Assembly (NCBI RefSeq): GCF_056746865.1 | Contig: NZ_CM163382.1 | Direction: 5' to 3' (one strand) | DNA length: 64,000 nt | Shown here: one piece after another, positions 3,199-19,269 of the stretch | Layout of the letters: each line of letters opens with the position of its first letter | How positions within the stretch are numbered: position 1 is the stretch's first letter | The notes under the pieces: generated by a model | Told to the model about the DNA's origin: nothing | Seen by the model: only the letters and a program-made list of their open reading frames with translations | Databases searched by the model: none | Program-made: the position numbers and the translations under genes

Positions 3199-4077
3199 AT
3201 GAATAATCATTTCAAGTGTATTGGCATTGTGGGACACCCACGGCACCCTACTGCACTGACAACACATGAAATGCTCTACCGCTGGCTGTGCACAAAAGGT
3301 TACGAGGTCATCGTTGAGCAACAAATCGCTCACGAACTGCAACTGAAGAATGTGAAAACTGGCACGCTCGCGGAGATTGGGCAACTGGCTGATCTCGCGG
3401 TAGTCGTTGGTGGCGACGGTAATATGCTGGGCGCGGCGCGCACGCTCGCCCGTTACGATATTAAAGTTATTGGAATCAACCGTGGCAACCTGGGTTTCCT
3501 GACTGACCTTGACCCCGATAACGCCCAGCAACAGTTAGCCGATGTGCTGGAAGGTCACTACATAAGCGAGAAACGTTTTTTGCTGGAAGCGCAAGTCTGT
3601 CAGCAAGATTGCCAAAAGCGCATCAGCACCGCGATAAATGAAGTGGTACTTCATCCAGGCAAAGTGGCGCATATGATAGAGTTCGAAGTGTATATCGACG
3701 AGATCTTTGCGTTTTCTCAGCGTTCTGATGGCCTGATTATTTCGACGCCAACAGGCTCCACCGCCTATTCCCTCTCTGCGGGCGGTCCTATTCTGACCCC
3801 CTCTCTGGATGCGATTACCCTGGTGCCCATGTTCCCGCATACGTTGTCAGCGCGACCGCTGGTGATAAACAGCAGCAGCACGATCCGTCTGCGTTTTTCG
3901 CATCGCCGTAACGACCTGGAAATCAGTTGCGACAGCCAGATAGCACTGCCGATTCAGGAAGGTGAAGATGTCCTGATTCGTCGCTGTGATTACCATCTGA
4001 ATCTGATTCATCCGAAAGATTACAGTTATTTCAATACATTAAGCACCAAGCTCGGCTGGTCAAAAAAATTATTCTAA
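3199..4077 (+). CDS. nadK: NAD kinase
   Basis: 292-aa translation [17 protein letters not shown]... with GGDGN motif; conserved neighbour of grpE and recN. Confidence 0.95.
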
Positions 4078-7263: not shown

Positions 7264-7746
7264 ATGACGAAGAAAAAAGCACATAAACCTGGTTCAGCGA
7301 CCATCGCGCTTAACAAGCGCGCCCGTCACGAATACTTTATCGAAGAAGAGTTCGAAGCGGGACTTGCCCTGCAAGGCTGGGAAGTTAAATCCCTGCGCGC
7401 AGGAAAAGCCAATATCAGCGACAGCTACGTCCTTCTGCGTGACGGAGAAGCGTTCCTGTTTGGCGCAAACATCACACCAATGGCAGTGGCCTCCACGCAT
7501 GTAGTGTGCGATCCTACCCGTACCCGCAAATTACTTCTCAACCAGCGCGAACTGGACTCATTGTACGGTCGCGTCAATCGAGAAGGCTATACCGTAGTGG
7601 CGCTCTCCCTGTACTGGAAAAATGCCTGGTGCAAAGTGAAAATCGGCGTCGCCAAAGGTAAGAAACAGCACGATAAACGTTCAGACATCAAAGAACGCGA
7701 ATGGCAGGTGGATAAAGCGCGTATCATGAAAAACGCCCACCGTTAA
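7264..7746 (+). CDS. smpB: SsrA-binding protein SmpB
   Basis: 160-aa translation [29 protein letters not shown]... is canonical SmpB. Confidence 0.95.
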
Positions 7747-7960
7747 ACCTGCACTCCAATTATTGACCAGTTCCTCACCGCGCCTCCCTCTCCGGCGGCG
7801 CGAATGAACATCTTATTGGCTATCACATCCGACACAAATGTTGCCATCCCATTGCTTAATCGAATAAAAATCAGGCTACATGGGTGCTAAATCTTTAACG
7901 ATAACGCCATTGAGGCTGGTCATGGCGCTCATAAATCTGGTATACTTACCATTACACATT

Positions 7961-8323
7961 GGGGCTGATTCTGGATTCGACGGGATTTGCGAAACCCAAG
8001 GTGCATGCCGAGGGGCGGTTGGCCTCGTAAAAAGCCGCAAAAAATAGTCGCAAACGACGAAAACTACGCTTTAGCAGCTTAATAACCTGCTTAGAGCCCT
8101 CTCTCCCTAGCCTCCGCTCTTAGGACGGGGATCAAGAGAGGTCAAACCCAAAAGAGATCGCGTGGAAGCCCTGCCTGGGGTTGAAGCGTTAAAACTTAAT
8201 CAGGCTAGTTTGTTAGTGGCGTGTCCGTCCGCAGCTGGCAAGCGAATGTAAAGACTGACTAAGCATGTAGTACCGAGGACGTAGGAATTTCGGACGCGGG
8301 TTCAACTCCCGCCAGCTCCACCA
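7961..8323 (+). ncRNA. ssrA: tmRNA (SsrA), 363 nt, ending in CCA
   Basis: Starts ggggctgattctggattcgacggg; contains the tag-reading-frame region gcaaacgacgaaaactacgctttagcagcttaa (ANDENYALAA-stop); ends ...ggttcaactcccgccagctccacca. Confidence 0.95.
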
Positions 8324-8353
8324 AACATTCATTCATGATGCATCATGAACCTT

Positions 8354-8391
8354 AAAAAAGCCTGTAACTTCAACGAGTTGCAGGCTTTTTT
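8354..8391 (+). terminator. ssrA intrinsic terminator
   Basis: aaaaaagcctgtaacttcaacgagttgcaggctttttt hairpin plus T-run directly after ssrA. Confidence 0.6.
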
Positions 8392-8489
8392 GTTGCATGT
8401 GTGGTCATGATCTCTGTATGAATCTTGACCTTTTGGCACCATGTTTAGCACCACGGTATCGTGGGGCTAAAAAAGCGTGGTGCTAAAAC

Positions 8490-9737
8490 ATGCCTAAGCA
8501 ACTGAAACCCTTAACAAATGTGGAGATCGCTGGCGCGAAGCCCCGTAGCACGGATTATGAGCTACGGGACGGTGAAGGCCTGTACTTGCTGGTTAAGACT
8601 TCAGGGAGGAAGGCCTGGCATTTCGAGTATTATCATCCCGTCACCAAAAAGCGCACCAAAACCAGCCTTGGCCCTTACCCGGTCGTTACACTGGCCATGG
8701 CTCGCGAAACTCGCACGAAATACAGACGACTGCTCTGGCAGGGCATCGATCCCCGTCAACACTTAGCAGGAATAGCCGAAGAAAAACGCCTCCAGAATGA
8801 ATGCACGCTGGAAAAAGTTGCGGAACAGTGGCTCAAAGAGAAGAAACGGACCAGCGACCTTAGCGAAGATCACGCCAAAGATGTCTGGCGCTCGCTGGAG
8901 ATGCACGTCTTCCCTTCTCTGGGCAGTACGCCCGTCACCGAGATCCGCCCGAAGATGCTCAAGGAACACCTCACCCCGCTGGAAGAACAGGGCATCCTCG
9001 AAACGCTGCGCCGGGTTATCTCACGGCTCAATGAAATCTTCCGCTTCGCCATCTCCGAAGAGCTTATCGAGTTTAACCCAGCAGACAACCTGGTCGCCCG
9101 CTTCAAGAAACCGAAAAAGCAGAACATGCCCGCCCTTCCCCCCAGCGAACTGGGCAGACTAATGTTGGCACTACAAAACGCCTCTATCCGCAAGGAAACA
9201 CGCTGCCTTATCGAATGGGAGCTACTGACCTGGGTTCGCCCCGGCGAAGCCGTTAGCGCCCGCTGGTGCGACATCGATATGAAAAAAGCGGAATGGCGTA
9301 TCCCTGACACCTTTATGAAGATGAACCGTTCACACACGGTGCCGCTCAGCAAACAGGCGCTGCGTGTTCTTCAGATCATGGAGCCCGTCAGCCGCCATCG
9401 TCCGTGGGTCTTCCCCAGCATCCGCAAACCGCTGGAGCACATGCACCAGCAGACCGCGAACGCCGCGCTTATCCGCATGGGGTTCGGCGGTGAGCTGGTC
9501 GCCCACGGCATGCGCAGCATCGCCAGAACGGCGGGCGCAGGTCATTTTCCCCGTGAAGTTCTGGAATCTGCACTGGCACACCAGAAAGAAGACGAGATCG
9601 AAGCGGCCTACAATCGCAGCGACTATCTGGAACAAAGGCGACCGCTCATGCAGTGGTGGGGAAACTACGTTGATGCCGCCAGACGGCAGGCATTGCTCGG
9701 TGAAGAAGAACCGCTGCGGATCGTGGAAGGAGAATAA
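8490..9737 (+). CDS. P4-type tyrosine integrase (IntA/SlpA-like)
   Basis: 415 aa; N-terminus MPKQLKPLTNVEIAGAKPRSTDYELRDGEGLYLLVKTSGRKAWHFEYYHP is the P4-integrase arm-binding type; C-terminal catalytic region with HxxR and Tyr; located directly next to ssrA. Confidence 0.9.
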   Translation: MPKQLKPLTNVEIAGAKPRSTDYELRDGEGLYLLVKTSGRKAWHFEYYHPVTKKRTKTSLGPYPVVTLAMARETRTKYRRLLWQGIDPRQHLAGIAEEKRLQNECTLEKVAEQWLKEKKRTSDLSEDHAKDVWRSLEMHVFPSLGSTPVTEIRPKMLKEHLTPLEEQGILETLRRVISRLNEIFRFAISEELIEFNPADNLVARFKKPKKQNMPALPPSELGRLMLALQNASIRKETRCLIEWELLTWVRPGEAVSARWCDIDMKKAEWRIPDTFMKMNRSHTVPLSKQALRVLQIMEPVSRHRPWVFPSIRKPLEHMHQQTANAALIRMGFGGELVAHGMRSIARTAGAGHFPREVLESALAHQKEDEIEAAYNRSDYLEQRRPLMQWWGNYVDAARRQALLGEEEPLRIVEGE

Positions 9738-10732: not shown

Positions 10733-11905
10733 TTAGAGAACCTTAGACTGTTCTGGGAACCAGTTATTAATTATATGTCTTCGACAGACTTTAGATATTT
10801 CAAATACCTGTCGTGACACTAATGCACCATCAGGATGGCGCTGGTCAGGTATGTCATTTTCTATGTCATAAAAATTATGCGTTATTTCTGGGGGAAAGAA
10901 AACGTTTTTGTCTAAAGGCACGCTTGCATAGGGATTATAATACACATGCAAACCATCAAAATGAGTTTCCTTGTAGTCCCTTGTTCGGCACATTACAATA
11001 TCCGCGCCAACAACCTCATTGTTGTAGAATTGTCGCTTCGTAGTAACATAATGGTCAGGACCAAGTTTTCTCGTATGAGAACCTTCGTTCTTCATACCTT
11101 CATTGGCAATAAAAACATTCACATCAAGAGCTCGGAATCTCGTATATCGGACATATCGATCGACCCGACTCTGAACGATAGCCTTACCAAAAGTACCTGT
11201 CGTTGAAAACACGATAGCACTGATTTCTTTGTATGAGTCATTTGTAAAAATACCTAAAGGTATTTCAGTGTCTTCATTTTTTTTAATCGATAAAACCCTT
11301 CTTTGCCTACCATTTACTAAATCTCTCATCGTAGGTTCTTCAATGCCAAACAATACCCGGTTAATGATTGTATTATTCTGGGTTAAAGATAGATCTGAAT
11401 CAAATGGGGCCAATGCTAACACAAAAGGCTTACCGATTACATGTTCCATTGTTGAGTATGGGAACTTCTTACCATTAATTCCGGTAAAGAGATCGCGCTT
11501 ATCTTTAATTTTCCCAAGAAGTTTTAGCGTAGATTGATGCTTAAACTTAGCTTCACTGAAAATTTCACTGACTGGCGGTTTATGGGGCTTGTCAGAGACC
11601 ATAGCCTCTACGTTAAATTTATAACCTAATGGCGTGCTAACACAAAAATCAGGACTGTCTTTTGTATAGTCAACCGAATACCCCAAACGAATAAACATCT
11701 CATTTAGATATAATTCCCACATAGAAGAATTAAAGGTAGTCTGAAATTCGTTAATAAATTTAGTTTGTTCACCACTGCGTTCCAGTAATCCGCGTCCCCA
11801 TGATTGGATCACCGCCCTAACAGGAGCAAGTTTAGGATCTGTGTAGATTGTTTTAAAATTGTGATTTAGTTTATTTCTAGCTATTTTTGTTGAGAAGAGA
11901 TCCAT
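10733..11905 (-). CDS. hypothetical protein, unassigned family (paralogue A); candidate defence or abortive-infection protein
   Basis: 390-aa AT-rich ORF. Shares conserved blocks with the 356-aa product of 33796..34866: EFQTTFNSSMWELYL vs EFQTSFEPCLWELYL, DSPDFCV vs DAPDFIV, FVLALAPFD vs FVIAIASFD, ISAIVFSTTGTFGKA vs VSAVIYSSLATWGKV, YNPYASVPL vs HNPFAKYPL. Confidence 0.7.
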   Translation of the reverse strand: MDLFSTKIARNKLNHNFKTIYTDPKLAPVRAVIQSWGRGLLERSGEQTKFINEFQTTFNSSMWELYLNEMFIRLGYSVDYTKDSPDFCVSTPLGYKFNVEAMVSDKPHKPPVSEIFSEAKFKHQSTLKLLGKIKDKRDLFTGINGKKFPYSTMEHVIGKPFVLALAPFDSDLSLTQNNTIINRVLFGIEEPTMRDLVNGRQRRVLSIKKNEDTEIPLGIFTNDSYKEISAIVFSTTGTFGKAIVQSRVDRYVRYTRFRALDVNVFIANEGMKNEGSHTRKLGPDHYVTTKRQFYNNEVVGADIVMCRTRDYKETHFDGLHVYYNPYASVPLDKNVFFPPEITHNFYDIENDIPDQRHPDGALVSRQVFEISKVCRRHIINNWFPEQSKVL

Positions 11906-12356
11906 TATTTACCTCTATAAACACTTTGTAAAACTAAACATGTGTATTTTACTGCGCTGATTGTCGAACATATGCTTCAAATTGTAATGCGGTATTCTAC
12001 ATCAGAAAAACCTCTTTTATATTTTCCTCATTAAATTTATTTACACCGAAAAATAGCCGCATGAATCATGTCTGAACAGATGAACTTCTCTAATATAGCC
12101 TAAATACCTACGACTGCGCTATAAAGAGGGAACCTCAAGCACTAATAGCACAAAGAAAATATGCGAACACAAATTTGACGCGAAACTATGACTTAGATAG
12201 GATGAATCTAGGTGGTGATGGTCACCTGGCGCCTGTCTCGCAAAGCAATAGCCCATCGTTCAGAAGTATACCAAATACTTGGCCGCCATCCATTATGACG
12301 CTGCCCGGTTAGCAGGCTATCGGTATCCAAAGCGTTACTTTATTGGAGGTACAGCC

Positions 12357-12896
12357 ATGTCTGACTATTCATACCTAAGCATTCTTAAAACGTGCGCTAA
12401 AAAGCTGGCTCGCATTCAGAAAATTAAGCTTTCCAAAGCACTCGAAATCGTTGCCCGTGACGCGAAATTCACCAGCTACCATGAGCTGTCCGAAGTCGCA
12501 AAACGTGCCCCGCTAGAACAACGGCTGGTTTTCGCTGCAATAGGCGAAGATACTCAAGAGGATGTGATTTATCGCGATGAGATTTTTTATGCCATAGACC
12601 GCGAGGTGGAAGATATGCTCTCCGGCGACATAGCGGAAACAAACGCCTATGGTTTTAGCATAGAGAATCTGGAGGCAACAAGCATAAATTACGACCCAAA
12701 GCGAGGCATTCTGGTCGTCCAAGTCATATTTGATTATCAGGGTGAACAAGATTCTGAACGCCCTTTCTCTGGTTCGTCCTTTGAAATTGTTGCGAAAATG
12801 GAGCTACTTCTTCGCGACAATGTATGGAGCCTCGTAGAAAATAGTCTGGAATTGACCTCTGTTAATTCAAATGTCGATAATGACTGGTACGATTAA
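12357..12896 (+). CDS. hypothetical protein (start uncertain; ORF opens at 12279)
   Basis: Long ORF in the AT-rich int-alpA interval; no motif recognised. Confidence 0.35.
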   Translation: MSDYSYLSILKTCAKKLARIQKIKLSKALEIVARDAKFTSYHELSEVAKRAPLEQRLVFAAIGEDTQEDVIYRDEIFYAIDREVEDMLSGDIAETNAYGFSIENLEATSINYDPKRGILVVQVIFDYQGEQDSERPFSGSSFEIVAKMELLLRDNVWSLVENSLELTSVNSNVDNDWYD

Positions 12897-13497
12897 GACA
12901 TATAACAGTAGGAGGCATTCCAAATTTTTGGCGGAGTGCCTTTTTAGTAACTATATCCAGATGAAATCATCGAGTTATCACATGAGCATCCATCTTACGT
13001 GTACTCAAAACACTTATGGGCTTCTAAATTCAGGAAGTCCCTACTCCGCTTGCTGGCGCTTCTTTGAGCCTCGTGGCGTCCATATACACCAATTAGGCCA
13101 GACCATGCTCAAACAACTTGTCGAGAAATGCTATGTGCAAAAACCACTGGACATGTTCTCGATGACAGCAGGCAAACTAACTGGGCTTGATCAATCTGGG
13201 CCTAAACTGGCTTCCATCATATGCAGAGGGATAGAGCAGGCCAAAGATGTACAACTCGGAGAGTTACTTTTTGCCTGCGGTATCTATGGTGTGGAAGAAG
13301 AAGAAGCCTGGTTACTAGCTAAAAGATTCAGTAATCTTGAGGCCTTGTATGGTGCCAGCATAGATTCTCTGATGAGTTATAACCTTCTTAATGAGGCAGT
13401 AGCTGTCAATACGTATAACTTCTTCCGTCATCCGCTCAATGTGTCGGCTCTTAACGAGTTACAAACAGAAGGTGGATTGAAGGTGCGCCATGGATAG
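12871..13497 (+). CDS. stand-alone protein homologous to the C-terminal helix-hairpin-helix region of NAD-dependent DNA ligase LigA (start uncertain)
   Basis: Translation ...VHIHQLGQTMLKQLVEKCYVQKPLDMFSMTAGKLTGLDQSGPKLASIICRGIEQAKDVQLGELLFACGIYGV...KRFSNLEALYGASIDSL...NFFRHPLNVSALNELQTEG parallels the LigA HhH region as I remember it (QLVEK.YV..P.DLF.LTAGKLTGL...GPK.A......FGTLEAL..AS.EEL...NFF...N..VI.EL); no adenylation KxDG motif upstream. Confidence 0.55.
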   Translation: MSIMTGTIKTYNSRRHSKFLAECLFSNYIQMKSSSYHMSIHLTCTQNTYGLLNSGSPYSACWRFFEPRGVHIHQLGQTMLKQLVEKCYVQKPLDMFSMTAGKLTGLDQSGPKLASIICRGIEQAKDVQLGELLFACGIYGVEEEEAWLLAKRFSNLEALYGASIDSLMSYNLLNEAVAVNTYNFFRHPLNVSALNELQTEGGLKVRHG

Positions 13498-13680
13498 AAT
13501 TAACACCAAGGCTGTGCCCGGCCTTTTATCTATGCAACGTAGCCGATGACAGTTAACGGTGAGACAGCAACACCTGTTGTAACATGTTTGTACTCGTGCA
13601 TTGCCATCCGTAGGCCTAAACATATCTGACTCCCACAGGATGGGGATAAAATACAACATTTGCATTTTCAATTTGTTATC

Positions 13681-13733
13681 GAAAAATCATTAGTCCTGAT
13701 GGGAAATAATATCTTCCCGGACTAATGATTTTC
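13681..13733. promoter_or_regulatory. long palindrome upstream of alpA (candidate operator, or terminator of the upstream gene)
   Basis: gaaaaatcattagtcc (13681..13696) and ggactaatgattttc (13719..13733) form a 14-bp perfect inverted repeat with inner gggaa/ttccc symmetry, about 100 bp upstream of the alpA start. Confidence 0.4.
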
Positions 13734-13831
13734 TATCCGGACTCCACTTTTTTATCCGGGCCTATACCTCCCCTCATCGTTCCGCGCTATAACCGCTCCG
13801 ACACTCTGTTCCCGTCCCGTGAGGTGCAATC

Positions 13832-14047
13832 ATGAAAACCAGTGCAGACAGTAACGATGCTTTTCCCGAAAGCGGCAACGTGCGTATGCGGCAGGTAGTC
13901 CAGTTTCTGGCGATGAGTGAATCGTCGGTTTACCGCCTGATTAAAAACACCGACTTTCCCCGCCCCGTCCACCTCTCTTCCCGACTGGTGGTCTTCGATG
14001 CTGCTGAAATCCGTCAGTGGCAACAGCGCCGCGCCGCCATCCGTTAA
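13832..14047 (+). CDS. alpA: AlpA-family phage transcriptional regulator (HTH_17)
   Basis: 71 aa; VRMRQVVQFLAMSESSVYRLIKNTDFPRPVHLSSRLVVFDAAEIRQWQQRR is typical AlpA; sits directly upstream of the primase gene. Confidence 0.8.
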   Translation: MKTSADSNDAFPESGNVRMRQVVQFLAMSESSVYRLIKNTDFPRPVHLSSRLVVFDAAEIRQWQQRRAAIR

Positions 14048-14082
14048 TCCACGCTCAGGGATGAGCCGACTGATACCCCGTC

Positions 14083-16152
14083 ATGAAACGCGCCCCTTTT
14101 CTCTGTAAGCAGTCTCCGGACCGCACGCTCGAAGTGGTGATCCTTGCCGGAAGCCTGGCATGGGAGACCTCACACGTGTGGCGAAAAGATCCCGACCGGG
14201 AAGATGATGTTCCCCCGATGGTACTCGGCCCGGATGAACTGGCCGATCTGAGCAATCTGACCATTATCAGGCCCGACACGCTCTACGTCCGGGTACTTCG
14301 CACCGGCGATATCAGTGAAGAAGAGCTGCTGAAAATTGCCGTAAAACTGGCGCACGCGGGCGTGCAGATGGCCCGGCTGATGACCCCTGACGGTGAGTTA
14401 CTGGAGAACTGGACCGGACAGCTTGAACGCCTGCGACAGGAAAGACCTTCTGACATCCTGCCGGATCACTTCCGCCTCGATGAAGAAGCACTGTGGTTTG
14501 ATAAGCTCACCGAACGGCGCGACGGTGAAAGCGATGTCCAGCCCCAGCGCATCTGTTCCCCTCTGCGCGTCACTGCCATCACCTGCGACAGCCATGACGG
14601 CAGCTATGGCCGCCTGCTGGAATGGCACACCACCACCGGGCAATTGCGGCGCTGGGCCATGCCGATGGCGATGCTCAGCGGCAACGGCGAGGAGCTGAGG
14701 CGCATTCTGCTGGAGAACGGCCTGACCTATATCTCCACCCGCCCTGCCCTGCGCAGTCTGCTGTGCGAATATATCTCGCGGTCACTCCCCGGACGCCGGG
14801 TCACCTGCGCGGAGAAAACCGGCTGGCACAACGGCGTGTACGTGCTGCCGGATGAGGTTATCGGTCCCGATGGCGACAACGTCATTCTCCAGGGCAGCCA
14901 CTACCTGACTGGCGGCTTTGCACAATCCGGTACGCTGGCAGAGTGGCAGGAGCAGGTCGCCGCGCTCTGTGCAGGCAATTCACGGCTGGTCTTTGCCGTC
15001 TGCTGTGCGCTGGCCGCCCCGCTGCTGCGCCTGACAGGAACGGGCGGCGGAGGCTTTCATCTGCGCGGTGAGTCCACTGACGGTAAGACCACGGTGATGA
15101 AAGTGGCCGCTTCCGTCTGTGGCGGGACGGATTACTGGCACTCCTGGCGGGCCACCGGGAATGCGCTGGAAGGAATTGCCAGCCGCCACAACGATGCCCT
15201 GCTGCCACTTGATGAACTGCGCGAAGTGGACCCGCGTGAGGCCGGGATGATTGCCTATATGCTGGCGAACGGACAGGGCAAGGGGCGCGCCCGCACCGAT
15301 GGCGAAGTGCGTAACCGCAGGCACTGGACGCTGCTGCTGTTCTCCACCGGGGAGCTGTCGCTGGCGGAACACACCGAATGCGCCGGGGAGCGCCTCTACG
15401 CCGGGATGGACGTGCGCATGGTACAAATCCCCAGCGACACCGGGCAGCATGGTTCGTTTGAGCAGTTGCACGGGTTTGCCAGCGGCCAGCAGTTCGCCGA
15501 TACTCTCTGCGACCGGGTGGCCCGCTTCCACGGCACCGCCTTTCGTGCCTGGCTGGCCTTCCTCACCAGCGACCTGGACGCCAGCACCACGCTGGCGAGA
15601 GAGTTACTTCGCCGCTACCAGACCGCCCTGATGCCGGACAACGCCGGAAACCAGGTGCAGCGCATCGTGGCCCGTTTTGCCCTGCTGGCGGTGGCCGGGG
15701 AGATAGCGACACTGAACGGTATCACGGGCTGGCAGGAAGGCTCGGCGTATGGGGCGGTGCAGATCTGCCTTCACGCCTGGCTGAACGAGCGCGGCCATAT
15801 TGCCAACCAGGAAGATGAAGGCGTGCTGGCGCAGATCAAGCGGTTCATTACCGCGCACCAGTACAGCCGCTTTGCCTCGTGGGATGGCCCGGACCGCCCG
15901 CTGAATATGGCAGGCTTTCGCCGGGTGGAAAAAGATCCGCTGACGGGCGAGGAACACACGCTGTTCTTCATCCTGCCTGAGGGCTGGCGGGAAATATGCC
16001 GGGGATTCAGTCCTGCCAGAGCGGCCAGATTATGCCAGGAAGCGGAATGCCTGCTGCCCGGCAGCGACGGGAAATACCAGTCGCAGGTTCGCCTGCCGGA
16101 GATCGGCAAAGCCAGAGTCTACCGCCTCACCTCCCGCATCCTCAGTATCTGA
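14083..16152 (+). CDS. phage/satellite replication protein (primase-like N-terminal region plus P-loop NTPase)
   Basis: 689 aa; Walker A-like GESTDGKTT in the middle; alpA-primase-iteron arrangement typical of P4-like and PICI elements. The many antisense ORFs across it reflect high GC. Confidence 0.7.
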   Translation: MKRAPFLCKQSPDRTLEVVILAGSLAWETSHVWRKDPDREDDVPPMVLGPDELADLSNLTIIRPDTLYVRVLRTGDISEEELLKIAVKLAHAGVQMARLMTPDGELLENWTGQLERLRQERPSDILPDHFRLDEEALWFDKLTERRDGESDVQPQRICSPLRVTAITCDSHDGSYGRLLEWHTTTGQLRRWAMPMAMLSGNGEELRRILLENGLTYISTRPALRSLLCEYISRSLPGRRVTCAEKTGWHNGVYVLPDEVIGPDGDNVILQGSHYLTGGFAQSGTLAEWQEQVAALCAGNSRLVFAVCCALAAPLLRLTGTGGGGFHLRGESTDGKTTVMKVAASVCGGTDYWHSWRATGNALEGIASRHNDALLPLDELREVDPREAGMIAYMLANGQGKGRARTDGEVRNRRHWTLLLFSTGELSLAEHTECAGERLYAGMDVRMVQIPSDTGQHGSFEQLHGFASGQQFADTLCDRVARFHGTAFRAWLAFLTSDLDASTTLARELLRRYQTALMPDNAGNQVQRIVARFALLAVAGEIATLNGITGWQEGSAYGAVQICLHAWLNERGHIANQEDEGVLAQIKRFITAHQYSRFASWDGPDRPLNMAGFRRVEKDPLTGEEHTLFFILPEGWREICRGFSPARAARLCQEAECLLPGSDGKYQSQVRLPEIGKARVYRLTSRILSI

Positions 16153-16169
16153 GTGCCATCTCGCGTGTC

Positions 16170-16385
16170 TTAAAAAAAGGTGGTACAGGGTGGGACAAGT
16201 GGTACACGCAGAGCTGGCGCGGGTTTCAGCGTCCCACTTTAGATAATTTGGTTTAAAAAAAGTGGTACAGAGTGGGACAGCCGTTGCTGAATCTGTCCCA
16301 CTTTTCTGACTGGTATTTTTCAGGTGGTACAGCGCAAAGCCACGGCTGGCGCGGTTGTACCACTTGTCCCACCTGTACCACCTTA
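16170..16385. repeat. iteron cluster, putative origin of replication of the island
   Basis: Copies of GTGGTACAG(R)GTGGGACA: aaaaaaaggtggtacagggtgggacaagtggtaca (16174..), aaaaaaagtggtacagagtgggacag (16254..), ggtggtacagcg (16322..), and an inverted copy gttgtaccacttgtcccacctgtaccacc (16355..16383); A-runs precede the direct copies. Confidence 0.7.
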
Positions 16386-16824
16386 AAAACAGAAGAAATG
16401 AAAATGGCGAAAAGGGACTGCAAAAGCAAAGGCTGAAAGGAAGAGAGAATAAGGGGAACGGACTTACTCTTAAATGGATAACCTATATTTTTATATTCGT
16501 ACCATTTACATGATGGAGTGCAAAGTTACCATTCAACATGATTTGGATTAGATAGCAAAATTCTCTATAGAATGTTTTCTAGATTTCAGAGGGATTTAAC
16601 GATAGCTTATCTCACAAATCACAAATCGGTCAAAAAATATACAGAAAACCAAGTTTTGCCCAGAAATCCTTTTAAAATTTTTGAGTTAAAAATCATTGTG
16701 TTGTATTAATTTCAGGACGCCACATGTCAAATATCGACACCCAATATAGTGTATAAAAACACAGGAGGACTCATTGTGATTTATATAATAAAATAACCTT
16801 ATACATCTTTCTGGAAACCAAGTA

Positions 16825-17811
16825 ATGGTTAAAATTCACATTTTAGATGCCGGACATGGTGATTGCTTGTTAGTAGACTGCGATGGTGTCAAATTGTTAA
16901 TTGACGCTGGCCCAAGTACATTTAGGTATAGAAAAAAAATTTCAGCCAAGTTAGCTGAACTTCTGAATGGCGAGTCTGTTGATATCGCTTTTGTAACTCA
17001 CAATGATGATGACCATATCGGTGGTTTCAAATACCTAATTGAAAATAAAATAAACATCAAGAGATTTGTATTCAATAGTTTATCTAACATTAAACATGTA
17101 ATAAAGAATTCAAGCAATAAAATATCGACCAAACAAGATATAAATCTTGATAGAATAGTGAAAGATGGAAGTTTTGTCTTTTCGACACTAACTTCAGATG
17201 ACTCTCCTATTTTAATCAGAAATATAAAAATAACACCTATTACTCCTTCAAAAAATATCCTTTTAAAATATTTAGAACAACAAGAGCGTAAAAACACAGA
17301 AATTAAAATATCATCTTCATCTGAAAAATATAGTATTAAAGAAGCACTGCAGTTGCTAAGCAATGGAAATGATATGTTTGTAAAGGATCCATCGGCAACT
17401 AATAAAACCAGTTTATCATTTATGATTGAGTATGGGAATTTTTGTGGATTATTCCTTGGTGATGCACACGAAGAAGACATCTACTCATATATGGCTAATC
17501 ATTGTGCCAATAGAAAAATATCATTTAACGTTGTTAAGTTAGCACATCATGGTAGTGAAAAAAACACGAGTTCACGGTTATTGAAGTTAATTGGTACAAC
17601 AGAATATATCATATGTGCGAATAAAACCAAGCATAATCATCCAAATAATTTAACTCTTGCAAGAATTTTAATACATGAACAAGAACCTAAAATTCATATG
17701 AGTAGCAGCAATCAGGAGATAATAAATTTACTCAATCAAATAAATTTATTAGGCTTCGGCATTACTGCAACCCATTCTGAAAATGGAGTTAATACTTTAA
17801 TCTATGAGTAG
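16825..17811 (+). CDS. metallo-beta-lactamase-fold hydrolase (ComEC-like MBL domain); first gene of candidate defence operon
   Basis: 328 aa; MBL motifs HILDAGHGD, VTHNDDDHIGG, GDAH, KLAHHGSEKN; strongly AT-rich; stop overlaps next start. Confidence 0.75.
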   Translation: MVKIHILDAGHGDCLLVDCDGVKLLIDAGPSTFRYRKKISAKLAELLNGESVDIAFVTHNDDDHIGGFKYLIENKINIKRFVFNSLSNIKHVIKNSSNKISTKQDINLDRIVKDGSFVFSTLTSDDSPILIRNIKITPITPSKNILLKYLEQQERKNTEIKISSSSEKYSIKEALQLLSNGNDMFVKDPSATNKTSLSFMIEYGNFCGLFLGDAHEEDIYSYMANHCANRKISFNVVKLAHHGSEKNTSSRLLKLIGTTEYIICANKTKHNHPNNLTLARILIHEQEPKIHMSSSNQEIINLLNQINLLGFGITATHSENGVNTLIYE

Positions 17812-19027
17812 AAAAAATGCTGTAAAAATAAAAGTCAATGATTCGGAATCAAGTGGCTATTTTTTCAAAGCAAGCTCCAAGGATGATTCTTTTGTAATTT
17901 CATCCAAGCACGGCCTTTGTTCTAGACAGTCAGATTGTGAAGAATTTCTTGATAATGTTCAGAATTGTTGCCGTTTATGCACTCAAGATTTAAATATTGA
18001 CAATATATCTTTTGAAATTGAAGGAAATAAGAAGCTAAAGCCAATAAGTTATTTCAGTCTTGAAAACAAAGATATTGTCATCACCAAAGTGGATGGGGTA
18101 TCTAATTATCCTTTAAGGATAGGAAAGATAGAAAAAGAAAAGTATTATACTTATGGTTACAAGAGTAAATGTGATAAGCCTGGCAGAATTTTATTAAATG
18201 AGCCAGATTTATTAGATGGGATTTGTTATTTCAATATATGTTCCGATGCAACACCTGAGTTGATTGAGAAAAGTGAAGAATATTATGGAATTTCAGGTTC
18301 ATTAGTTTTTGATTCTCCAGAAAAAGATGTTTTAACCGCACATGCAGTAATAACAACTAATGAAACCAATAATGACTTAGGTTCAGAAATATTACATGAT
18401 ATTGATTTCAAAGAAATTAATAACTTTTTCGGCTGTGAAGTATTCTTGGGTAAAAAACTCCAATTTCAACTAGATGATACTTTTAGTAAAAATTTTTCAA
18501 AGATTGGAGAAGTGCTTGTTAGCGACAAACTCCAAATTGAAATATTTATTTCATCTTATAAAGGTATACCATATTTTAATTTGACACCAATTGCTGATGC
18601 ATTAATTCAAAGTAAGTTTTATTATGTTTTTGGAAATGTTAGTAGAAGTGATCATATAAATATAATCGCTGCATCAAACATTATACTCAACAAATCTCAT
18701 TTAGAACCAGCTAATAAATTATTAACTAGCAAATTAACTGAATCGATATTATCAGCACCTCATATTTATTCCACTAGCATTGATGATAATAATTATCATC
18801 ATATTCATTTTAAACAAATGACTTCTGGTGATATTGAGCTCATAATATCATGTTATGGTGGAGGAGATGATCTTCCTAAAGATATAAATGGCACTTTAAC
18901 TGAGTTGTTACACAATATAAATACTTATAACTTAAATAAAAATTCAATAATTGAGAGGTCTTTTCTTAATCAAAAATTTACAGATGCACAATGCGAAATT
19001 TTATATGAGATTTTTTTGAGCGATTAA
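17804..19027 (+). CDS. protein with N-terminal trypsin-like (S1/DegP-type) serine protease domain and unknown C-terminal domain
   Basis: 407 aa; SSGYFFKASSKDDSFVISSKHGLC (GSGF...TNxHV-like His region), ENKDIVITKVDG (Asp region), YGISGSLVFD (GxSGxP-like Ser region) in trypsin-fold order; start ATGAGTAG overlaps the upstream stop. Confidence 0.6.
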   Translation: MSRKNAVKIKVNDSESSGYFFKASSKDDSFVISSKHGLCSRQSDCEEFLDNVQNCCRLCTQDLNIDNISFEIEGNKKLKPISYFSLENKDIVITKVDGVSNYPLRIGKIEKEKYYTYGYKSKCDKPGRILLNEPDLLDGICYFNICSDATPELIEKSEEYYGISGSLVFDSPEKDVLTAHAVITTNETNNDLGSEILHDIDFKEINNFFGCEVFLGKKLQFQLDDTFSKNFSKIGEVLVSDKLQIEIFISSYKGIPYFNLTPIADALIQSKFYYVFGNVSRSDHINIIAASNIILNKSHLEPANKLLTSKLTESILSAPHIYSTSIDDNNYHHIHFKQMTSGDIELIISCYGGGDDLPKDINGTLTELLHNINTYNLNKNSIIERSFLNQKFTDAQCEILYEIFLSD

Positions 19028-19053
19028 CTGATTCAATCGACAGAATTTCATTA

Positions 19054-19269
19054 TTGCATGTAATTCCTTTGGACCATTATTTAATAAAAGATAAATCAGA
19101 AATTAAAAATGAAATTATTACCATTGTTGAGAAAGCGTGTCAAGAATTAGACAGCAACATTTTAGATTATCTTGAGCATGGAATATCTATAAATCTATTA
19201 ATATTTCCAACTAATAATAAAGATGAATTATCAGGGTTAATGCAAAGGTTGATAAATAATTATGAATGA
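19054..19269 (+). CDS. small hypothetical protein (71 aa) coupled to the helicase gene
   Basis: ORF whose stop overlaps the helicase start (aattATGAatgatg); no motifs. Confidence 0.4.
   Translation: MHVIPLDHYLIKDKSEIKNEIITIVEKACQELDSNILDYLEHGISINLLIFPTNNKDELSGLMQRLINNYE

Follow-up and report, generated by a model that had tools for sequence, protein, structure and literature searches.

In heterobivalent integrases the N-terminal domain, seated on arm-type sites, builds the recombination complex (PMC2951348). In KplE1, IntS and TorI repress the PintS promoter through sites in attL, and the authors of that study predicted autorepression for all int genes that adjoin attL, citing the autorepression of P4 Int (PMC2951348). 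The P4-like integrase IntI of PAI I536 also represses its own promoter (PMC7286903). In P4, the GenBank record (NC_001609) annotates an 'attP arm sequence repeat' as two tandem 12-mers upstream of int followed by an inverted copy over the ATG, with two further tandem annotated repeats on the far arm, across the core. The locus described here, which lies in a 64-kb window (the whole stretch of DNA that was analysed), carries a repeat array directly upstream of an integrase gene. Judging from the sequence, we consider it likely that this array, at 8431-8488, is the int-proximal arm of attL, that it is made up of three or four putative arm-type sites for the N-terminal domain of the adjacent integrase, and that it overlaps the int expression signals in a way that would entail autorepression.

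The setting is an E. coli chromosome, where smpB (7264-7746) lies upstream of the tmRNA gene ssrA and where a P4/CP4-57-like island sits in ssrA, with the array at its left end. The two genes ssrA and int are co-oriented, int being transcribed away from the tRNA-type gene and adjoining attL. The CCGCCAGC(T)CCACCA block of the ssrA 3' end recurs where K-12 CP4-57 ends on the right, and also before tandemly inserted islands. Tandem stacks of islands at ssrA were seen in several loci. Between the core and the array lies a hairpin with 16-nt arms (94% complementary) followed by TTTTTT, likely an ssrA terminator supplied by the island; relatives carry equivalent terminators, and in one of them (L041) both sides of the stem are altered. 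Among 5,426 complete E. coli genomes, 136 carry this ssrA-int junction in identical form, with int annotated merely as "integrase domain-containing protein". The features referred to below are the following:

7961-8323, plus strand: ssrA (tmRNA), from ARAGORN, with Rfam RF00023 concordant
8307-8323, plus strand: ssrA 3' end, the attL core region and joint between island and chromosome (ARAGORN, Rfam RF00023)
8354-8391, plus strand: island-supplied hairpin and T-run between core and repeat array (inverted repeat I1)
8429-8790, plus strand: exchangeable cassette of the array and int codons 1-100, from the identity profile against L004, L045 and L046
8431-8443, minus strand: repeat copy c1, CATGGTGCCAAAA, two mismatches to CGTGGKGCTAAAA
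8443-8455, minus strand: repeat copy c2, CGTGGTGCTAAAC, one mismatch; left arm of the inverted repeat annotated earlier
8457-8462, plus strand: -10-like hexamer TATCGT in the central 4-nt spacer region, a consensus match only
8460-8472, plus strand: repeat copy c3, CGTGGGGCTAAAA, no mismatch
8476-8488, plus strand: repeat copy c4, CGTGGTGCTAAAA, no mismatch; right arm of the inverted repeat annotated earlier
8490-9737, plus strand: int, a P4/CP4-57-type tyrosine integrase of 415 aa, from its Pfam domains
13832-14047, plus strand: AlpA-family gene, from the RefSeq annotation of an identical locus

The integrase matches three Pfam families, Arm-DNA-bind_3 (PF13356, 8e-22), Phage_int_M (1e-23) and Phage_integrase (7e-20), the first of which covers residues 8-91. 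Its N-terminal 104 aa match PDB entries 3ju0 and 3jtz, both solved integrase N-terminal domains, and the whole protein is about 62% identical to an integrase from a phage record annotated 'Prophage CP4-57 integrase'. The AlpA-family gene is a candidate for the excisionase, or directionality factor, of the island. It lies 4.1 kb past the int stop codon and is not co-transcribed with int.

Repeat and motif searches revealed four copies of a motif of about 13 nt, CGTGGKGCTAAAA, within 58 bp. Copies c1 and c2 stand in tandem on the minus strand with a 12-nt spacing, c3 and c4 follow in the inverted orientation, and c4 ends 1 nt before the int ATG at 8490. The distance of the copies from the 3' end of ssrA is 108-165 bp. 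Outside the array, the 64-kb sequence matches the motif just twice, both times with two mismatches, and four copies of any 8-mer never arose in 200 shuffles of the 69-nt region. In all 10 loci whose integrase is 98-99% identical to that of the window the array is invariant, though nearby bases vary. The initial annotation had described part of this arrangement as an imperfect 17-bp inverted repeat reaching over the int start, and it had the arms right (8439-8455, ccatgtttagcaccacg, and 8476-8492, cgtggtgctaaaacatg): 12 perfect base pairs (8444-8455 with 8476-8487) are followed by a bulged A at 8488 and then by CATG against CATG. The inverted repeat is thus real, but its description was incomplete, since it is one part of the four-copy array. 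The inner palindrome at 8451-8464 (ccacggtatcgtgg), which had been called perfect, has 5-bp arms (CCACG and CGTGG) around GTAT, positions 6 and 9 (G and T) being non-complementary.

The array also coincides with the possible expression signals of int. The sole consensus-level sigma-70 match upstream of the gene is TTGGCA (8433-8438), an 18-nt gap and TATCGT (8457-8462), agreeing at 9 of 12 positions, and it falls inside the array; as a promoter it is a weak prediction. Consensus matches of the same kind lie within the repeats of K-12 (TTGATA-17-TATTGT) and P4 (TTGAAA-18-CATAAT), and the same scan gave no promoter-like site in a Citrobacter sedlakii relative (L004) or in a phi467-type relative (L002). 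In the papers covered by a literature search, no transcription start was found for intA or for any of its relatives. The sole Shine-Dalgarno-like bases, GGTG at 8479-8482, lie within c4, an assignment made by comparison with the 3' end of the 16S rRNA. At the other end of the array, c1 coincides with a conserved TTWTGGCACC box (TTATGGCACCCT) and with the -35-like TTGGCA. A sigma-54 reading of the TGGCAC in c1 was considered by eye and rejected, as a GC element at the -12 distance is not conserved among the relatives.

Under the arm-site reading, the integrase N-terminal domain would bind a tandem pair of sites and, further along the DNA, an inverted pair, the last site of which abuts the int start codon. 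These sites overlie the promoter-like hexamers of int, its Shine-Dalgarno-like bases and its start. Bound integrase would help to build the recombination complex and would also repress its own synthesis, and it is because the sites overlie these three signals that occupancy should be repressive. The repeats, the conservation of their layout, the link between them and the arm-binding domain, and their match to the annotated P4 arm repeats are direct observations; integrase binding, the position of the promoter and autorepression are what we infer.

We compared the upstream regions of integrase relatives drawn from contigs of one genome per species, viral contigs, phage records, K-12 and P4. The layout is kept in about 49 distinct sequences upstream of int from Enterobacterales (Citrobacter, Yersinia and Hafnia among them), while the motif differs by lineage: a tandem pair 12 nt apart is followed by inverted copies, the last of which adjoins the ATG, and the spacers between copies vary freely. 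The lineage motifs are GGTGCTAAA, GGTGCAAAA, GGNTACTAAA (GGCTAC/GGATAC), GAGGGAG, GGGTCC and TGGGCCTAAA. Relative to the ATG, the copies stand at -58, -46, -26 and -10 in the window, at -53, -41, -25 and -10 in the GGGTCC type, at -70, -58 and -25 in K-12 CP4-57 and at -53, -41 and -5 in P4, so that the 12-nt tandem spacing recurs in the GGGTCC-type relatives, in K-12 CP4-57 and in the annotated P4 arm repeats. The comparison with P4 and CP4-57 that the initial annotation had proposed reveals a layout common to both. The two direct copies are also alike by lineage; c3 and c4, the only pair on which these figures are based, agree at 9.7 of 13 positions within a lineage and at 7.0 of 13 across lineages.

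Two natural exchanges link the repeats to the N-terminal domain of the integrase. In the first, the window was compared with C. sedlakii L004 and with the viral contigs L045 and L046, and the identity (in 40-nt windows) drops to about 60-80% over 8429-8790, with 100% identity over 8295-8428 on one side and 95-100% from about 8790 to past the end of int on the other; the next ORF after int is also 95-100% identical. The motif changes from GGTGCTAAA to GGTGCAAAA along with this block. In the second, Yersinia thracica L009 (GAGGGAG) differs from Y. artesiana L013 and Y. aleksiciae L016 (GGGTCC), with 53-82% identity from -40 to +305 and 95-100% outside. In both cases the right boundary falls where the Pfam arm-binding domain ends. 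In L046, the one swap partner in which AlpA could be compared, that protein is 94% identical to the AlpA of the window, with two changes in the helix-turn-helix region. Residues 1-100 of Int are thus the sole protein segment that changes with the repeats, because AlpA and the DNA past codon 100 stay near-identical.

This co-exchange of repeats and N-terminal domain fits the prediction for arm-type sites, and neither an RNA hairpin nor an excisionase operator explains it. Since the repeats and the domain are adjacent, their co-inheritance in one tract could in principle reflect linkage and not co-adaptation; however, this is disfavoured because there were two independent events with module-like boundaries. 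The proposal that an integrase arm-type site lies within attL, one of several functions suggested earlier for the inverted repeat, is supported by the P4-like layout, the presence of an arm-DNA-binding domain and the two exchanges of repeat and domain together. The least certain integrase site of the four is c1, because CP4-57-like relatives conserve its TTWTGGCACC box regardless of which repeat motif they have, and because the box lies outside the Yersinia exchange; it may be a separate element, such as a part of the promoter or a host-factor site, and not a fourth integrase site.

A further, tentative reading, to which we give perhaps one chance in a few, is that the array and about the first 100 codons of int make up a portable 'identity cassette', which moves between islands as one piece and creates orthogonal arm specificities, while the array may also fold in ssrA read-through RNA and block stray translation of int. 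If this were true, partner islands would share a catalytic domain and the ssrA core target, and islands stacked at ssrA would each be excisable by their own integrase alone. The cassette swap is the sole mildly novel element of this locus, the arrangement itself being known and ordinary.

We think it unlikely that the array exerts control at the level of RNA. It would then be transcribed within the int 5' UTR, either by read-through from ssrA or from a promoter that precedes 8431, and a nested hairpin would hide the Shine-Dalgarno-like bases, abut the AUG and keep translation low, which could coexist with DNA sites. Post-transcriptional control of P4 int was reportedly described by Piazzolla in 2006. 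The folding that had been suggested as a check on the initial annotation does predict a stable structure: the hairpin over 8431-8488 has -34.1 kcal/mol, whereas shuffles gave -19.9 +/- 3.1 (z = -4.5; none of the 200 was as stable), and it pairs c1 with c4 and c2 with c3, taking in everything to position -2, including GGTG at 8479-8482. Both the conservation in relatives and the stable structure on which the earlier proposal depended are present. Nested pairing potential is found in most relatives (z from -1.7 to -4.6). For the nested structure, 78.7% of cells are paired, with at most 55.6% in slid controls, and the pairing persists when the motif changes; nine pairs show double changes, and on the int strand there are 26 G-T mismatches versus 10 A-C mismatches. 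However, hairpin potential is inherent in any palindromic set of protein sites, and because such sites pair anyway these pairing statistics do not discriminate between the RNA and the DNA-site readings. A transcript starting at the predicted promoter, at about 8469, would be without the left arm and is not unusually structured (z +0.4). In 17-19 of 23 sequences two stem positions hold conserved mismatches, A-A and C-C; RNAalifold gives a covariation term of just -0.14, and Rfam finds the tmRNA alone over the region, with no family for the array hairpin. The lineage-specific likeness of the direct copies is not required by a hairpin, and the coupling of the repeats to the integrase N-terminal domain has no RNA explanation. 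The sequestering of the ribosome-binding site is physically plausible, as the fold is stable and does reach position -2, and it would depend on where transcription begins. The occlusion is not conserved, given that K-12 CP4-57 and a Klebsiella phage (L003) have the Shine-Dalgarno sequence and AUG free, downstream of the hairpin. A modelled hairpin of this kind may possibly serve as a secondary layer, for example against read-through from ssrA.

That the repeats are operators for another island protein, either an AlpA-family excisionase or a repressor, is improbable, although there are precedents on its side: the K-12 annotation gives AlpA as an activator of intA (PMC8249747), directionality factors bind attL repeats and repress int in KplE1 (PMC2951348), and an AlpA gene is present in the island. 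Against this stands the viral contig L046, where a nearly unchanged AlpA accompanies a different repeat set, which also speaks against the excisionase site proposed earlier; in addition, the swap leaves the DNA past codon 100, next ORF included, almost untouched, and the equivalent repeats in P4 are annotated as att arm repeats. A chance or neutral palindrome, for instance a recombination remnant at the island end, is the least credible origin and is, on the conservation data, effectively refuted, for even if the island is apparently unable to excise (no attR was found in the window) and selection on its att arms may be relaxed, shuffles never reached the copy number or fold energy of the array, the array is unchanged in all close relatives while nearby bases vary, and P4 and CP4-57-like elements from many genera have kept the architecture.

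If the array is the int-proximal arm of attL, as we favour, a second arm with copies of the motif near attR would be expected. In the 64-kb window no attR was found using a 23-mer and a 15-mer of the ssrA 3' end and the K-12 attR variant, and no distal CGTGGKGCTAAAA cluster was found there either. In this lineage the island has a degraded right side, and IS elements truncate the related islands of E. coli. The 10-kb flanks of the viral-contig relatives gave no downstream attR, and two scans of viral contigs for a right arm of the window type (the motif, then CCGCCAGC after 45-85 nt) gave chance matches, the patterns being so loose that at least 240 loci matched, with a real core in none of the 240 loci listed. 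The record of phi467, considered as an intact two-ended element, proved to consist of a Stx phage and the start of a neighbouring island, and was set aside. In K-12 CP4-57, where three motif copies lie upstream of intA, an inverted pair of near-matches is found 70-85 nt inside the attR core; these copies are imperfect (one or two mismatches each), and we estimate that such a pair would occur by chance in a 100-nt window with a probability of about 0.002. The right ends of other ssrA elements, in tandem arrays, have tandem pairs at the same place as the K-12 attR copies. These observations are supportive only, being no test of the window's own element.

For annotation, the array indicates where an unstudied ssrA island probably has its functional left arm, and it gives a testable consensus, CGTGGKGCTAAAA, for the sites of its integrase. 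The comparative series, with one layout, at least six motif variants and two natural swaps of domain plus site, could be used to derive the rules by which arm domains read DNA, and it would also be useful in the design of orthogonal pairs of integrase and att site with a common core site. The wider value is modest, as the known model of integrase autoregulation is unchanged.

Compared with the described systems, the window shares with satellite phage P4 (Pierson & Kahn 1987; Piazzolla et al. 2006; NC_001609) an integrase family with an Arm-DNA-bind_3 N-terminal domain, tandem copies 12 nt apart upstream of int, one or more inverted copies reaching the start codon, and promoter-like hexamers within the repeats. 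The motif has the same shape in both, G-rich, then C, then A-rich (TTGGGGGCAYA in P4 and CGTGGKGCTAAA in the window), although its sequence is different. P4 has one inverted copy, overlapping the ATG, whereas the window has two, 16 nt apart and ending before it; P4 targets a tRNA-Leu gene, the window island ssrA; the second arm that is present in P4 is missing in the window; and the two integrases are only distantly related.

In KplE1 (CPS-53), as in the window, int lies beside a tRNA-type gene and points away from it, and the directionality factor is encoded elsewhere (Panis et al. 2010, PMC2951348). There, attL overlaps the int promoter, and arm-type sites with a conserved TAAA core lie over -10 and +1, as they do here with respect to a predicted promoter. 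The integrase subfamily and the target (argW) are different, TorI sites have been mapped in KplE1 and none was identified in the window, and negative autoregulation, which we infer for the window, has been demonstrated in KplE1 (PMC2951348).

K-12 CP4-57 is an element of the same type with the same target, even though its integrase shows only some 26-70% identity to that of the window in 30-residue windows. It differs in its motif, TGGGCCTAAA, in having one inverted copy where the window has two, in a separate GGGAG Shine-Dalgarno sequence downstream of the repeats and free of overlap with them, and in retaining an attR, which was not found in the window. Both elements, however, are inserted in ssrA and have a tandem pair (at -70 and -58 in K-12) with an inverted copy (at -25) before the integrase gene, and the K-12 element, with a promoter-like site embedded in its repeats, carries further motif copies near attR.

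A comparison of the window with the loci of Citrobacter sedlakii (L004) and of two viral contigs (L045 and L046), which have another repeat motif, shows that the stretch 8429-8790, which comprises the repeat array plus the first 100 codons of the integrase gene, has been swapped as a single block. The same block exchange was found in a second, independent lineage, between Yersinia thracica (L009) on the one hand and Y. artesiana and Y. aleksiciae (L013 and L016) on the other, and in both swaps the loci are 95-100% identical outside the exchanged block. Judged from these sequences, the array together with integrase codons 1-100 looks like a portable arm-specificity cassette. A perfect match to the arm motif, GGTGCTAAA, is also present at 7880-7893 in the host DNA upstream of ssrA (ATGGGTGCTAAATC), but it is shared with K-12, which does not carry the window's island, and is therefore probably due to chance.

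The region between the att core and the ssrA terminator contains the following feature:

8332-8349: perfect 18-bp palindrome, TTCATGATGCATCATGAA, starting 9 nt past the tmRNA 3′ end

Other inverted repeats occupy the equivalent position in relatives. Two possible roles of the palindrome are an integrase site close to the core and a signal for tmRNA 3′ processing. The long stem and the 6-nt loop of the island-supplied ssrA terminator (8354-8391) caused a simple terminator scan to overlook it. In one related locus (L041) both sides of the stem are altered, from GCCTGTAAC...GCAGGC to TCCTGCAAC...GCAGGA, a two-sided change that is consistent with a functional hairpin.

The cargo of the island, spanning 10733-27170, looks like an anti-phage defence cluster:

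10733-11905, minus strand: PD-T7-5
16825-17811: LmuA-like protein with a metallo-beta-lactamase fold
17804-19027: partner of the LmuA-like protein, without a match
19262-20464 and 20503-21786: Hachiman HamB helicase, split in two ORFs
25917-27170: PD-T4-1

No match to HamA was seen among the proteins tested. Boxes of the CCGGACT type recur upstream of the alpA-family gene, in the region 13700-13830, which also contains an inverted repeat, AATCATTAGTCCTGA / CCGGACTAATGATT; both are partially conserved in L046 and may represent the operator of the excisionase promoter. In that viral contig the integrase start codon (position 3800) has changed from ATG to ATA, and one base is deleted from the ssrA core (CCGCCAGCCCACCA). 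The int gene of this contig may be inactive, or the core may have been recombined.

In regards to mobility (stretch 8324-40900), the window contains no second copy of the 3′ end of ssrA that could be attR, and in related genomes the right-hand side of ssrA islands carries IS3, IS5 and IS1 insertions. The window's island is probably fixed in place, despite its intact int and arm sites. Another element or prophage often ends, with its attR-like core (CTCCGCCAGCCCACCA), immediately in front of window-type and CP4-57-type integrases. This is seen in L006, L048 and L050, where the core lies some 180 nt before int, as well as in L038 and viral contigs of the L057 type. Islands are thus stacked in tandem at ssrA, and every island has an arm motif of its own (e.g. 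TTGGTACAC / TAGGTACAC).
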